Virus record (IMG/VR): IMGVR_UViG_3300035501_000578
Span: 32,001 to 96,000 of that record
Strand: one strand, 5' to 3'
Source: a virus
Taxonomy: Duplodnaviria; Caudoviricetes
Length of the DNA: 64,000 nucleotides
In this document: positions 1 through 6,215 of the stretch, piece by piece
How the letters are laid out: every line of letters begins with the position of its first letter
Numbering within the stretch: the stretch's first letter is position 1
Program-made: the position numbers and the translations under genes
Notes under the pieces: generated by a model
Told to the model about the DNA's origin: nothing
Database searches by the model: none
What the model saw: only the letters and a program-made list of their open reading frames with translations

Positions 1-2035
1 CTGCAATTATTGGAGTAAAATTAACAGCAACAGTTCCATCTTCATTTGAATATGTACTTGAAAATACAGTAGCAGTTCCTTCACCAGCATCCCAACCAGC
101 TTCATTTAACAAAGAAGTATCAATAGTAGGACGGAGTGTAAGATTAACTGTGCCATCCTTTTCAAGAGATTTCATTTCTTCTTCTACAGTTTGCTTTGTT
201 TCTTGTGCTGCATCAATTACTTTTTGTTTTTGATTTTCTACCGCCTTTTCAAATTCTGGGGAATCAGCTATTTTAGCGTCTTCTTTATTCAATTGACCCA
301 CAAAAGAATTAATTGTCTGGTTTTTATTACCAGAAGTAGAATCACTTGCGTTACTATTATATCCTAATCTATCTTTAATTCTTTGTAATTCCGCTTCGTC
401 CTCATCTGTGTCAAATCCTAGCTTAATTTTTAATTGATTTTTGTCCAAACCAAGAATATCAGCTAGTTGAGAAATATAATCTTCTATTGCTATTATGTTT
501 TGTTCTAATGATGCATCCTCATCAATAGCAAGCAAATTAGCATATATTTCATCAACTTTAGCCTTATCATCATCAGATAAATCATATAATGATTTTAGAA
601 TTTCTTCATTAAGAAACGTTATAATGTCATTCTTATACTTCGAAGAAATTACATCTTTATAATCTGCAAAATTAAGATTAGCAACTAAAGCATCGGCTAA
701 TGCTTTCCCATTAGTAGAAAGATTCTTATAATCTGCTTCGCCAGATAATGCAGTATAAATAGTAGATAATTCATTCTTATAAGCATTATTTATTTCATCC
801 TCAGAATCAGACATACCAACAGTAAGTTGCTGTATAATATTATCTTTTAATACATCAGAATTAAGATATAATGAATTAATAACTTGTTCATACTGTTCTT
901 GAGTTATATCATTTAAATCAAGAAAATATTCGTGAGTTAAATCATTATATTCAGTCTTTAAATCAGTACCAAGAGATTCGTTTACTATATCCCTGATATT
1001 ATTCATAAGAATTTCACTATCAGCACCATCATATGTATCAGGTAATGATAGAGTTTTTGAACCTAATTGACCGGCTGCACCTTGTAAATCAGTCACGAAC
1101 ATATTGATAAAAGAATCAAGTTGTTCTATTTTATCTATCTGTGCTTCGGCTGAGTCAATTACATCACTACCACCTCTTGTTTCTTCTTCTATACCAGCAA
1201 AAGTAGTTTTAAGAGATTCCTTACTTTGTTCAGCAACTAATTGCTGTTGTGCTTCAATTAATTGATTTATTTTTTCGGTAGAAGATTCAGCGTTATCACC
1301 TAAATTAAGAATATAGTGTCCCTCATCATCTAATCCGGTTATTAATTCAGGAAATAATTCACCTAATTTATCACTTGATTCAATAAATTCATCATATTCA
1401 TCAGATGATAATTTTACATTTGTATTATTTACAGTATTTATGCCATTTACTAATGAACTATAAGTTTCTATTGCATCGGTAGCAGAAGAGGTTAAATCTT
1501 CTAAGTCTGATTTAGTTTGAGATATTTCACTTCGTGCAGTTTCACCAGCATCAATTATTTCTTGGCGGGCTTCTTCGAGTTTTTTATTATGTTTATTAAT
1601 CGCATAAATAACTCCTGTTATTGCTGATATACCTAAAACTGCCCACCCAATAGGATTAGAAGCTAGAAAAGATTTTATAGAAGCAGTTAATCCTTTAATT
1701 GCCAAAGTAAAACCGCCAGTTGTAGTAGTTGCCGCTGCTTCGGAAGATGTGATAGCATTAGTAGTTGTTACTTGTGCTAATTCTGCTGCGGTTGTTTTGA
1801 GTGTTTCACCGGTTAAACCTTTTTGATATAGAATCGCCTTAATTTGCTCTTCATTAAGAGTAGACTGTGCTACGGCTGTTTTAATGGCTTCGAGTGAATA
1901 TCCTGATGTTGCTTCTGCCAGTTTATGTGATAAAACTGCATTATCAAGTAATCCATTCCCTAATTGACTATTTGTTTTAATTACAGTTTCTATTGTACTA
2001 ATAACATTTAAGGACTCGCCTATAGTTCTTAATTG
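1..2035 (-). CDS. Tape measure protein, exon 4 (runs off the window edge)
   Basis: Frame begins CAA TTA AGA ACT ATA GGC (QLRTIGESLNV...SNPIGWAVLGISAITG...). It was read open at both ends; the middle was not fully translated. TMP-like composition. No ATG/GTG/TTG between the upstream in-frame stop and 2035. Absent from the ORF track, consistent with no stop in the window. Confidence 0.88.
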
Positions 2036-2061
2036 CTTAGTACAATATATTATAGTATAAT
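2033..2061 (+). promoter_or_regulatory. Sigma-A-type promoter for cargo ORF 2091
   Basis: TTGCTT-17 nt-TATAAT, followed by RBS AGGAGG before the ATG at 2091. It overlaps the predicted 3' splice site on the other strand. Confidence 0.65.
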
Positions 2062-2090
2062 AAAAAACAAAATATTAGGAGGGAAAAGAT

Positions 2091-2492
2091 ATGACACCAC
2101 GTAATCTAATGGATAAAATCTGTAAAGAGGCAGATGAAAACACAGAATTTTATAAAAAAATTAGTAATGTTGCTGAAAGTAGAGATAAATTAAAATGCAT
2201 AGAACTTCTTATACAACATTATAATTGTGACTTTGATAATGCAAGAATGGTAATAGATTATATTATTGACGGAACTCCATTACCTTCTGACCTTTCACCA
2301 GCCGAAATTGCTCACAATAACGCAGTAGCACAGGAATGGCAGAATAAACCCAAATGTATTTGTTGCGGCTCAACAAACTTAAAGAAAATATCAGGATTAT
2401 CCAAAGCAGGCTCTGTCGCAGTTTGGGGTATATTCGCTGCTGGAAGAACGTCAAAAACTTGGCATTGTAATAATTGTGGAACGGAGTGGTAA
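2091..2492 (+). CDS. Zinc-ribbon-containing hypothetical protein (intron cargo)
   Basis: CxxC...CxxC motif (CICCGS...HCNNCG) flanking a hydrophobic stretch; good RBS. Confidence 0.75.
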   Translation: MTPRNLMDKICKEADENTEFYKKISNVAESRDKLKCIELLIQHYNCDFDNARMVIDYIIDGTPLPSDLSPAEIAHNNAVAQEWQNKPKCICCGSTNLKKISGLSKAGSVAVWGIFAAGRTSKTWHCNNCGTEW

Positions 2493-2532
2493 TTGTAAAT
2501 ATACTTGAAAACCTTGCGAGGGAGGAGTAACT

Positions 2533-2922
2533 ATGCTCAATAAACAACAAGAAAAAGTATTAAAGTTTTTACTGTCTTTACCGAGAGATATTGATAATAC
2601 TGTAAGTGTCAGCAATAGTATGTGTACAATTCCTTCGAATATATCCGAAACGGAATTTATAACTATACTTAATTCATTAGAGCAGAATGGTTTTCTTAAA
2701 TTAAAATGGATTAACAAGAATCATGATAATCTAAATAATTATGTGACGATAACAATATTAAACGAAAATTACTTCAAAGAAAAGTCTGCCAATAATATAA
2801 AAAATTTAAAAGATAACATTAAATGGCTTATCCCTTTAATTATATCAATTCTTTCTTTGATATGGAATATTTGTAATACTATAATGTACTCATATTTAAA
2901 AGATTTTTTACTTAATAAGTGA
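2533..2922 (+). CDS. Hypothetical protein with C-terminal transmembrane helix (intron cargo)
   Basis: RBS GGAGG; hydrophobic C-terminus IKWLIPLIISILSLIWNIC. Confidence 0.7.
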   Translation: MLNKQQEKVLKFLLSLPRDIDNTVSVSNSMCTIPSNISETEFITILNSLEQNGFLKLKWINKNHDNLNNYVTITILNENYFKEKSANNIKNLKDNIKWLIPLIISILSLIWNICNTIMYSYLKDFLLNK

Positions 2923-3006
2923 GATTAAACTGCAAGTAATCCATATATTCCATATTATATTAACCAAAGAGATTGCTGAAATTATAATCCAAACAGTGTT
3001 TTTCAT
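2908..3006 (-). CDS. 32-aa hydrophobic peptide
   Basis: Read manually: MKNTVWIIISAISLVNIIWNIWITCSLISLIK, with RBS GAAAGGAA. Below the ORF-track size cutoff. Confidence 0.55.
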   Translation of the reverse strand: MKNTVWIIISAISLVNIIWNIWITCSLISLIK

Positions 3007-3123
3007 TGTGTATAATTCCTTTCATTTTTTATTTAATAAATTCTGTAGACTTGGGAATAAAACAGTTCACATGGCATTGTAAAGTAGTAGAGATTTTAAT
3101 AATTCAACAGTTCTAGACAATAC

Positions 3124-4568: not shown

Positions 4569-4600
4569 AAAAAGCGTCTAGTATAAAAAACTAGACGCTT
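4569..4600 (-). terminator. Terminator between the structured RNA and the PBECR4-like gene
   Basis: GCGTCTAG/CTAGACGC stem followed by U5. Confidence 0.7.
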
Positions 4601-4617
4601 ATAAAACTTCTTAAATT

Positions 4618-4742
4618 GGACAGCGTCCTGTTTTACAGGCTGTGCTATGGTAGTTTCATGTCCCCCAATAGGGAAGATGAGCTGTCCCATTCACCTTTAC
4701 TTTGGATAAACCAGGCATTTCTCCTAGAAATCACTAGACTTC
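4618..4742 (-). ncRNA. Candidate structured RNA upstream of the PBECR4-like gene
   Basis: GGACAGC/GCTGTCC closing stem with two internal hairpins; promoter TTGTAT-17-TATATT at 4779-4751. Confidence 0.5.
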
Positions 4743-4821
4743 TTATCTATAATATACACGAATATCGCAGAACATACAATCGAACATATTGTGAATTTTT
4801 TGTTAACAAAATAATTGTTAC

Positions 4822-5040
4822 TTAAATATTCTTATTCAACATTTCTTTAACTTCGTCAAAATTTTTACCGCTTTCCTGAATTAATTCATATAGTTCTTCC
4901 AGCTTGCTCATTTTGATTTGTTCTTCTAGTTCTATTTTTGTTTGCTTTAGTTTGCTGAGTGAATCTTCCATATTATTTATCTCTATAGTTATTTTACTTA
5001 ATTGTTCTTCCAAAGATATATTTTTCTTTCCTCTTGCCAT
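4822..5040 (-). CDS. Small coiled-coil hypothetical protein (intron cargo)
   Basis: Heptad-rich 72 aa; RBS AAGGAAG. Confidence 0.7.
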   Translation of the reverse strand: MARGKKNISLEEQLSKITIEINNMEDSLSKLKQTKIELEEQIKMSKLEELYELIQESGKNFDEVKEMLNKNI

Positions 5041-5244
5041 TTTGAATTACTTCCTTATAAATATGATAATGAGAGAGTAGCATATAATATACTATTTTGT
5101 AAATAAAAACAGAACGCAATATACGACAATTATTTTAATACTATAATACATTATATGTGAAAAAACTATGAATAAATAACTAAATAGCTTATGTATTTTT
5201 TATTATATCAAAATATAAATATAACAAATATTTATAAGTTTTTC

Positions 5245-5818
5245 TCGTTAGACGAAACACTACGTCCAAATACATTACTTAAACTTATTAAAAATCGCAA
5301 TGTACACTATGCATTATAAGCAGATGCTACATTATGGCTGTAGCCTACTCAAAGGATGGGTATGTCTGTGGGGATTGCTCTCTATACAATTTTAAATTGT
5401 ACAAAATCCTTTATATATACGATTACACTCTAAAAAGAGTGGAGTGCCGTCCTGCTCGTTATCTGTTGTCAATAGCACTTAGGCTTATATATCAGTTCTC
5501 ACCAATTTTCCCGTATGCCAACATAATCAATTTTTTCTACTTTCGTAACCTCATCCGCAAAAATAGGGATTACGGTTTGATATGTATTCCAGTGATAATC
5601 AAAAAGATTACCAGAAGGCTAATTGAACTTAGCCAAACTTTCAAGCATTTACTCCTTCATGTTTAGTTTATACTCCGCTAAAAGTGTTTGCAGAGTCTTA
5701 TTAAAAACTCCATGTATCCATAGACTTGTTATAACGCCATTATGTTATTTTCTTATCTACGATTACCCAATTAAAAACTATAGGCGAGTTTATTAATTTT
5801 TGTCGCTCTAATGAGCCA
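5245..5818 (-). ncRNA. Divergent group I-like ribozyme core of intron 3
   Basis: P1 and P10 guide; P3 GAAGGA/UCCUUU; P4 UGCUUG/CGAGCA; P6 GGA/UCC; R-like AAUCCCCACAGACAU versus AAUCCUCAGAGACUG in intron 1; P8 GAGUAG-GCUACA/UGUAGC-CUGCUU; two P9-like hairpins. P7 is not canonical. Confidence 0.65.
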
Positions 5819-6215
5819 AGTAAAGTTTTTAACGAACGCTGTTATACCTATTCCGGCAATAACAGTTTTTAATGACAGAAAATTTTCTGCCAAAAATCCA
5901 ACTACTTCTGATAATGTTGTTAAATCGTCAACAGCATCACCAAGAGTACCACGATCTATCATGGACTGAAATGTACCTGTCCACGTTTCTTTCAGTGCAT
6001 TAATTTTATATTCGAGTGAATTTTCAATAATGCTCATTTCGGCATCTGCTGAACCGGCTGCATTTTCCATATTCTCCATTGCTTGTTCTGCTGCTGAGAA
6101 GTTGGTAAGCAATCCGGCTACTACTTGTCCGTTACGCTTTCCGGCTAGCTTTTCTAAGAGTTGAGCCTGGGTTTTGTCGGAAAGGTCTGAATAGATCTCG
6201 GATATCTCTTTTAAT
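5819..6215 (-). CDS. Tape measure protein, exon 3
   Basis: (I)LKEISEIYSDLSDKTQAQLLEKLAGKRNG...GIGITAFVKNFT; continues exon 2 in frame. Confidence 0.9.

Follow-up and report, generated by a model that had tools for sequence, protein, structure and literature searches.

The window analysed here is a 64-kb stretch of DNA comprising bases 32001-96000 of a 112-kb IMG/VR phage record of 31% G+C (IMGVR_UViG_3300035501_000578). Its tape-measure protein (TMP) gene lies on the minus strand and is split into pieces, two of which, exon 3 (5819-6214, an open frame of about 132 codons ending in ...KNFT) and exon 4 (2-2035, continuing past the window edge and reaching 1823 codons in the whole record), are separated by 3783 nt (5818-2036, minus strand). 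We consider it likely, with a probability of roughly 0.7, that this intervening sequence is a cargo-carrying group I intron of a divergent sub-class, in which a remote 3' splice site would be tethered by an extended P10 helix. Under this model, an intron inserted at a hot-spot TMP codon of an SPbeta-like phage would have its 3' splice site far from the core, with no closing P9-type helix, and the extended P10 would bring that site to the active site. The 22 nt located directly 5' of the P1 guide would pair with the first 22 nt of exon 4, and P1 (5 bp, with a U.G pair) and P10 would together align both exons on one continuous guide strand. Ligation would yield an in-frame protein of more than 2600 residues, or more if a further exon follows the exon 4 stop, from a precursor most likely made in cis as part of a long late transcript.

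Proposed splice-site pairings link two distant exons

A 22-nt segment (5768-5789, minus strand), which begins 30 nt into the intervening sequence and adjoins the P1 guide on its 5' side, is complementary to the first 22 nt of exon 4 (2014-2035, minus strand): reading 5789-5768 against 2035-2014, 21 of the 22 positions form Watson-Crick pairs and the remaining one a G.U. The P1 guide strand itself, GGUAA (5763-5767, minus strand), pairs with the UUACU at the end of exon 3 and places a U.G pair at the splice site. The guide helix is flush on both sides, extending from base 1 of exon 4 to the base before GGUAA, and the position directly before exon 4 (2036) is a G. The element therefore carries the splice-site features of group I introns, namely a 5' exon end paired with an internal guide through a U.G, and a terminal G combined with a P10, albeit one that is far longer than usual. 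Across eight aligned sequences the U.G pair of P1 is invariant (8/8), and both of its neighbouring pairs show compensated changes.

The complementarity stands well clear of chance. When the 22-mer was searched with up to three mismatches, only two sites were found in the 64 kb, with 0.00 expected from shuffles; in the 112-kb record, the exon 4 site was the sole second match of the intron 5' region; and an unbiased scan of the 7 kb downstream returned the exon 4 start as the top partner of the first 140 intron bases. The P10 duplex has a calculated energy of -32 kcal/mol, with z = -12 against shuffled targets. From these pairings we infer a role for P10 in the choice of the 3' splice site.

An earlier note on this DNA had placed the end of exon 3 at 5819 and had described the guide, GGUAA, the 22-nt pairing, the G at 2036 and the start-less frame beyond it; all of these coordinates proved correct. 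Its further proposal of an extended P9.0, formed by 5309-5303 with 2044-2038, did not hold up: the 7-nt pairing is present, but is bettered or equalled by 16% of shuffles, overlaps the strand that we assign to the 3' side of P7, and has no conserved counterpart in relatives. Likewise, no P9-type helix that would close the cargo loop scored above shuffles when searched for, and no long-range helix other than P10 was found.

Exons 3 and 4 encode one protein interrupted at a hot-spot codon

Both exons align to a single TMP family (phrog_4211, positions 248-784 and 960-1175), and exon 3 shares 53-73% identity with the C-termini of called TMP proteins from relatives. Among 120 called homologs, 117 stop 0-27 residues past the position equivalent to 5819, with unrelated read-through tails, and the other three continue into sequence that can be aligned with exon 4. 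At the level of viral loci, 12 of 47 are uninterrupted at the junction codon and most of the others are interrupted, by intervening sequences that measure 0.8 to about 6 kb in the loci whose downstream part was traced. These loci were recovered by an alignment-based search of viral contigs, single-protein locus searches having given none. A scan of genome contigs returned six loci, and a degenerate 18-mer scan of viral contigs returned mostly known loci or chance matches, together with one new member, L066, of a sub-family of related introns termed family A (L004, L015, L016, L017, L025, L039, L048, L066 and L084/L086), with which the first 570 nt of the window intron align. L086 is the family A intron that Ruminococcus sp. 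YE282 (NZ_FMUV01000001.1) has at the same codon.

Read from 2035, the exon 4 frame reaches its first start codon, a TTG, only at 1705 and has no ribosome-binding site, and its first 110 start-less codons align with uninterrupted TMPs. Taken together, the termination pattern and the uninterrupted homologs indicate that the junction codon is an insertion hot spot and that exons 3 and 4 are parts of one protein. Ribosomal bypass of the 3.8 kb was considered and rejected.

In four family A introns (L004, at 12854, L016, L025 and L039), the terminal G closes an in-frame ATG directly before the downstream exon (exon B), while the intron opens with a stop codon and no ribosome-binding site is visible. 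This combination of an in-frame ATG with an intron-initial stop leads gene callers to report two complete genes. It also bears on an alternative in which the TMP gene is simply split by a relic intron that no longer splices, so that two separate proteins result, with exon 4 translated from a start codon inside it, or exon 4 is not expressed. Consistent with such a relic, two genes are annotated in all relatives, a stop codon lies at or within about 40 codons past the junction, the four family A relatives have their ATG at the 3' splice site, and P7 of the window intron is deviant, as described below. We nevertheless regard it as quite unlikely, as the stretch of exon 4 that lacks a start and a ribosome-binding site is conserved over 110 codons, the uninterrupted homologs are single proteins, and the compensation seen in core, P1 and P10 across phages requires ongoing selection on RNA pairing.

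The long guide is kept across related introns

To the family A introns and those of a further sub-family, family C, we could add five close relatives of the window intron, one found by a metagenome motif scan (L074, 1144 nt) and four through homologs of a zinc-ribbon protein encoded within the intron (L075, 4595 nt; L078, 1019 nt; L082, 1083 nt; L083, 5314 nt). Fourteen distinct introns from the three sub-families, 0.8-5.3 kb long, retain the helix between guide and exon, with sizes between 5+8 and 27 bp. In the window's own sub-family (six loci), P10 measures 19-27 bp (-21 to -32 kcal/mol); within it, the five close relatives form 19-27 pairs (-21 to -30 kcal/mol), with both ends flush save for a bulge that shifts the helix in L082. 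Family A has shorter helices of 5+8 to 18 bp, made up of a proximal helix of 3-7 bp and a distal one of 6-10 bp, with single compensated changes in L016 and L066. Those of family C measure 12-18 bp, L003 and L047 forming 12 and 17 of 18 pairs. In the 15 tabulated loci, a G always precedes exon B, and P10 is flush with both the P1 guide and nucleotide 1 of exon B in 13, the exceptions being L004 and L082.

Each guide fits its own exon. The guide of L074 scores -24.4 on its own exon as compared with -7.0 on the window exon, that of L082 scores -29.8 as compared with -18.2, and cognate duplexes outscore non-cognate ones wherever the exon sequence differs. P1 covaries with the exon as well (UUACU/GGUAA, UUGCU/GGCAA, GAU/GUC and GGU/GCC). 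In L074, four of the 20 pairs are G.U, which hold on the transcribed strand only and would be mismatches on the other. Guide-exon pairing is thus upheld both by compensatory and by strand-specific G.U changes. Since compensation in core, P1 and P10 is seen across phages whose exons are 27-68% identical, we conclude that selection on RNA pairing is ongoing.

A comparison of this kind, of guide and exon start in related phages with varying cargo, had been suggested in the earlier note, and it came out as anticipated in that the pairing is kept in the 14 introns while the cargo differs. The proposal of a cargo-bearing group I-like intron with a long guide to a distant 3' splice site is in this respect borne out by the covariation of the core, the architecture shared at the same codon and the compensation in P10. 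The accompanying idea that guide length is tied to cargo is not: guides just as long occur in introns of 0.8-1.1 kb that lack extra cargo, which makes the long guide a family trait independent of cargo size. Instead, the long helix goes with a 3' splice site that lies beyond an antisense gene.

These data also bear on two other explanations of the complementarity. It might act as a regulatory antisense element rather than as P10, sequestering the start of exon 4 or creating an RNase III site that controls TMP, with splice sites chosen through other contacts. A duplex of 22 bp far exceeds the P10 length needed for catalysis, and it would persist after ligation. We judge this very unlikely, however, because the exact P10 register, from nucleotide 1 of exon B to the base before the P1 guide, recurs in 13 of the 15 loci, and because the family A helix is broken by internal loops and bulges with its proximal 3-7 bp always kept, as would fit a P10 with an extension. 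Alternatively, the two 22-bp inverted copies that flank the 3.7-kb segment might be a feature of the DNA, namely the inverted ends of a transposon or the repeats of a site-specific system for inversion or excision, a notion that finds some encouragement in the IS200/IS605-type genes present in some related introns and elsewhere in the window. One of the copies, though, lies inside conserved exon 4 coding sequence, an inversion would not restore the frame, family-library scans revealed no recombinase in the cargo, and relatives pair through bulges and G.U pairs that mismatch on the other strand (four of 20 in L074), all of which makes a DNA-level origin extremely unlikely.

The intron begins with a probable, divergent group I core

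The first 568 nt after exon 3 (5251-5818, minus strand), from a hairpin in the P1 loop through a P9 hairpin, form a group I-type core that is homologous to intervening sequences at the same TMP codon in SPbeta-like phages of gut Clostridia; that of L074 is 72% identical to the window core over 552 nt. RNAalifold applied to six family A relatives gave 98 pairs, 36 of them compensated. The default fold mis-paired the P7 region in the 3' half, and the covariance model derived from it (R1) was not used. A group I helix model (P1, P2, the P3 pseudoknot and P4-P8) was mapped by hand and counted on an eight-sequence alignment (A2). In this model, 90.7% of cells are paired, as compared with 39-47% when the partners are slid, and 43 of 80 pairs are compensated, as compared with 6-11 when slid and 12.5 +/- 2.4 when shuffled. 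The compensated pairs are spread over the helices (P3 2/6, P4/P5 5/10, P6 6/10, P7 2/6, P8 6/12), and a P3/P7 pseudoknot with a P4-P6 domain, as expected of a group I P3-P8 core, was found.

The mapped helices comprise the P1-loop hairpin, P2 with an inner hairpin, P3 (AAGGAG/UUCCUU), J3/4, P4 (UGCUUG/CGAGCA), a large P5 domain, a long P6, P7 (G[A]GGACA/UGUUCC) and P8, and we take the blocks flanking them to resemble the classical P, Q, R and S elements. On the minus strand of the window, P2 with its inner hairpin P2a lies at 5718-5762, where all 8+5 pairs are formed via compensated changes relative to family A. Next come the 5' strand of P3 (5658-5653), J3/4 and the 5' strand of P4 (5647-5642), whose 3' strands lie at 5356-5351 (P3) and 5458-5453 (P4). 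By manual mapping, P7 has its 5' strand at 5366-5362 and its 3' strand, with a bulged A, at 5307-5302, on either side of P8 (5350-5318). The P7 of family A (G[A]GGACA/UGUUCC) is as in textbooks; those of the window (GACAU/GUGU[A]C) and of L074 (GACUA/UAGU[A]C) are two compensated pairs apart.

A second covariance model (R2), which covers the P6-P7-P8 half and was built from family A alone with the group I structure, matched the window at 5464-5301 with 35 bits (E 2e-5, 300 kb searched). The same model matched all of the close relatives searched, the family C intron L047, and L044, which has textbook R and S blocks. An nhmmer search with the family A profile did not find the window core and gave only a weak match to L082 (E 2.5e-4) and insignificant ones to L074, implying that the homology resides in structure and short motifs and that a covariance model is needed to detect it. 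A search of the whole record with the Rfam group I model (RF00028) found only two other, canonical introns, at G000:C1:28204-28550 (minus strand, to the left of the window) and at 20066-20404 of the window (minus strand), with 61 and 67 bits. On the records of five relatives (G001-G005), the same model found nothing at the introns. Given the covariation and the match to R2, we assign the element to a group I sub-class that Rfam lacks, and take 5251-5818 as a putative divergent ribozyme core with predicted catalytic activity.

Variable cargo and a conserved antisense gene precede the 3' splice site

Downstream of the core, which takes up about the first 570 nt, the intron consists of about 2.8 kb of swappable genes, a zinc-ribbon gene, a 54-nt tail and the terminal G. 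It holds six accessory genes, namely the zinc-ribbon gene and five open reading frames (ORFs) in the variable cargo region (2493-5250). Three of these five are in sense orientation to TMP and encode a 72-aa coiled-coil protein (4822-5040), a 215-aa PBECR4-like protein (3906-4553) and a 64-aa protein (3466-3660); the other two are antisense and encode 56 aa (3290-3460) and 129 aa (2533-2922). The resemblance of the 215-aa product to PBECR4 nucleases comes from language-model features only (search score 0.95, Pfam being silent), and neither Pfam, PHROGs, NCBIfam nor PADLOC gave a convincing family for the cargo or the zinc-ribbon gene. Terminator-like hairpins are present on the sense strand at 4600-4572, 3788-3768 and 3155-3123. 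The first of them, a strong hairpin with a T-run, precedes the 215-aa ORF, and the last is followed by a very hydrophobic ORF of about 32 codons (about 2907-3005, minus strand) that may encode a small membrane peptide.

The cargo differs among close relatives that share the core, the guide and the zinc-ribbon gene with the window intron. The cargo region of the window is absent from L074, L078 and L082, in which nothing or only tiny called ORFs are found at that place, and is replaced in L075 by a response-regulator/LytTR gene and in L083 by antirepressor-like genes. TnpB-like ORFs occur inside the TMP intervening sequences of L041 and L048.

By contrast with the cargo, the zinc-ribbon gene (133 aa, 2091-2492, plus strand), which adjoins the 3' splice site and is antisense to TMP, is conserved. 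A homolog was found at the same place and in the same orientation in 12 of 15 compared loci across the sub-families (13 proteins in the cluster), as well as in the five close relatives of the window intron, including L074. The homologs are 104-208 aa in length, share a C-terminal four-cysteine ribbon, and belong to a family with 714 or more clusters, most of them unnamed proteins from Lachnospiraceae and phages; a Foldseek search with the predicted fold returned generic zinc ribbons only. The start codon lies about 50-110 nt from the splice site, and 52-56 nt from it in the window's sub-family. In the window, the 54-nt tail of the intron (2036-2090, minus strand, terminal G at 2036) contains, on the plus strand, a perfect -10 box (2056-2061) and an AGGAGG ribosome-binding site (2077-2082) of the zinc-ribbon gene. 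Its weak -35 box (2033-2038) straddles the 3' splice site, so that promoter function may constrain part of the P10 target as well.

Transcription in cis is favoured, with the guide helix as a proposed tether

If the intron splices as proposed, its precursor could be made as one RNA or as two. In SPbeta, the late genes form one operon that is read by a highly processive, pause-resistant polymerase, YonO (PMC5467207). Relatives of the window's tail genes include the SPbeta families YonB, YomU, YomV, YomW and YomX, and the hosts of related tail genes are Ruminococcus, Lachnospiraceae, Oscillibacter and other Clostridia. A candidate for a YonO-like single-chain polymerase of late transcription is, by inference, a 944-aa protein (49092-51926, minus strand) encoded upstream of the terminase and portal genes on the same strand. 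It matches phrog_8308 (E 6e-90), a family of unknown function with 847 positions, and shows a weak match to an RNA-dependent RNA polymerase PHROG. Neither the 54-nt tail nor the sequence upstream of exon 4 yielded a sense-strand promoter. An SPbeta-type operon and the lack of a sense promoter before exon 4 together favour splicing in cis, with transcription running through the cargo and the guide helix acting as a tether.

The earlier note had allowed for a separately transcribed 3' exon as well as a distant one, and so for trans-splicing, for which we found nothing that would favour it over cis. In such a scenario, an RNA with exon 3 and the core would be ended by a terminator in the cargo, exon 4 would be transcribed separately with a short leader ending in the terminal G, and the guide helix would join the two RNAs. 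The terminator-like hairpins of the cargo would suit this arrangement, as would a hairpin followed by a T-run directly after the core in the family A intron L004; no long-range helix besides P10 closes the core, the duplex is strong enough for intermolecular association, and engineered trans-splicing ribozymes depend on long antisense arms (PMC6155759). Against this, the tail's clear -10 box is that of the antisense gene and no promoter for a separate exon 4 transcript is seen, the cargo-free relatives of 0.8-1.1 kb have guides of equal length, and late genes of the SPbeta type are a single operon served by a processive phage polymerase. The ribozyme is not split in the window: the core is contiguous (5818-5251) and the exons are colinear on one strand. 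To our knowledge, the natural trans-spliced group I introns are split inside the ribozyme and not after it, which likewise counts against trans-splicing here. We therefore consider it unlikely. Were it true, a bacterial virus would provide the first natural case of bimolecular group I trans-splicing, one in which the ribozyme stays whole on a single RNA, and an essential virion gene could then hold independently transcribed cassettes of any size.

Several observations weigh against a cargo-carrying intron that splices in cis through an extended P10. The first concern the duplex itself: P1 and P10 together form 27 bp (P10 alone contributing -32 kcal/mol), which should slow the release of ligated exons, and is long enough to be a substrate of RNase III. 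The second concern transcription, in that the way from the core to the 3' splice site leads through antisense genes and three terminator-like sense-strand hairpins in the cargo (1.1 expected), which would hinder the making of a cis precursor by a host polymerase. The third concern the core, as the bulged A of the window P7 is on the 3' strand, next to the presumed G-binding pair, and no Rfam family, including Intron_gpI (RF00028), was returned at E up to 10 for the window intron or the relatives tested. (These scans covered the window, 5200-5900, L003/L004 and positions 11900-12900 of L004, at gathering thresholds as well as at E up to 10, and gave only chance matches.) The downstream part might also be translated separately in the four family A relatives with an in-frame ATG. 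Finally, no spliced junction was seen in RNA or protein, the RNA data coming from one run. This was a gut metatranscriptome run in which a 264-nt contig was identical to 5455-5718, that is, from the 3' strand of P2 to the 3' strand of P4, inside the core. The contig, which could derive from DNA, is weak evidence for an intron RNA, and may represent a stable intron fragment or chance sampling; the same run gave no cover of exons, cargo or junction, and so neither supports nor refutes splicing.

Comparison with known introns

Group I introns in TMP genes have been described in prophages of the Bacillus cereus group (TMP-IVS1 to IVS3; Tourasse and Kolsto 2008, PMC2504315). Like the window intron, they are of a self-splicing type, occur several to a TMP gene in Firmicutes prophages, have a P1 and P10 that adapt to each insertion site, and include different introns at the same site. 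Unlike it, they measure 0.2 to about 1 kb, have a short P10 and carry at most a homing endonuclease gene, whereas in the window family the core is missed by Rfam, P10 reaches 19-27 bp, the 3' splice site lies 0.45-4.7 kb past the core, and an antisense zinc-ribbon gene is present along with variable cargo.

A remote 3' splice junction, about 1 kb away, is reportedly a feature of the T4 sunY (nrdD) intron, as described by Michel and colleagues (Genes Dev 6:1373, 1992). That intron is said to have its core at the 5' end and an ORF after the core, and to need a long-range RNA pairing, between nucleotides before the 3' junction and a peripheral core element, to choose the authentic site. No such contact is detectable in the window intron, in which the tether would be an exon-pairing helix 3-4 times the usual length of P10.

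The IStrons CdISt1 and BcISt1, in which a group I ribozyme is fused to an IS200/IS605 or IS607 element (PMC4227781), resemble the window intron in that a group I core at their 5' end precedes kilobases of coding cargo, with the 3' splice site only after it; the IStron is spliced as one. Their cargo is a transposon that moves the element to many sites with variable 3' flanks, whereas the window intron occupies one conserved codon, has no transposase cargo, and would recognise its 3' exon by a long covarying helix. It does not qualify as an IStron, given that there is no transposase in the window cargo, a single copy in the record and an insertion site that is fixed across phages.

A different class of interruption, of 3.4-5.4 kb, was observed near the same TMP site in L027-L033 and L046 (at about 7417 and at the exon B starts). 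Each of their borders carries the hexanucleotide GGTAAA, and there is an imperfect complementarity of 23 nt to the border downstream; no placement gives both a U ahead of the 5' border and a G ahead of the 3' border. They may be akin to group B IStrons, which splice after a G. On account of the repeat at both borders and the lack of a U before the 5' border, the L027-L033 interruptions were not counted as P10 evidence.

Natural trans-splicing group I introns are split introns of organelle genes. Trans-splicing introns share with the window intron a long antisense pairing beside the internal guide that brings, or in the window would bring, a distant or unlinked exon to the active site; compared with the natural examples, the window ribozyme is unsplit and both exons lie in order on one DNA strand. 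The guides of engineered trans-splicing ribozymes usually extend the pairing with the 5' substrate (PMC6155759), whereas the extension in the window pairs with the 3' exon.

Thus introns of group I have already been published from the TMP genes of prophages (PMC2504315), as has a 5' core followed by kilobases of genes, in IStrons (PMC4227781). In the literature searched, we found no description of a natural P10 of 19-27 bp, nor of a group I intron that holds a conserved antisense gene and exchangeable cargo of several genes at a single codon of an essential virion gene. If the introns splice as predicted, a P10 of 19-27 bp would be a natural solution to the problem of a 3' splice site located kilobases from the core. 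We know of the principle of lengthening P10 only from engineered trans-splicing and circular-RNA ribozymes. A self-splicing intron could then offer accessory genes a sheltered place within an essential late gene, one that in relatives is taken by a putative nuclease, a LytTR regulator or antirepressors. The family would also represent a widespread group I sub-class absent from Rfam. In prophages of gut Clostridia, the TMP gene is routinely annotated as two genes, with consequences for length-based predictions of the tail.

Other introns and elements of the record

The remainder of the TMP gene lies upstream of exon 3 on the minus strand and comprises exon 1 (10498 to about 8706) and a short exon 2 (around 8400-8220). 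At the other end of the gene, the stop codon of exon 4 is followed 13 nt downstream by the canonical Rfam group I intron to the left of the window, and in view of this spacing a fifth TMP exon probably follows. A megablast search of 12 kb against deposited phages gave no match.

Two more TMP intervening sequences are found at 6215-8220 and at about 8416-8706 (minus strand). They have 3' blocks in common (repeat D2, 74% identical) and contain canonical-looking R/S elements (GACUG with CAGUC), and neither was scored by Rfam. The larger one harbours a 501-aa ORF resembling an HNH/DUF4379 homing endonuclease (6387-7892), together with a 57-aa ORF. For intron 1 of the same gene, a P10 of only 6 bp was read by eye. 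Elsewhere in the window, a 473-aa ORF (32464-33885, minus strand) combines an IS200-type Y1 transposase domain with an IS605 OrfB/TnpB (Cas12f-like) domain.

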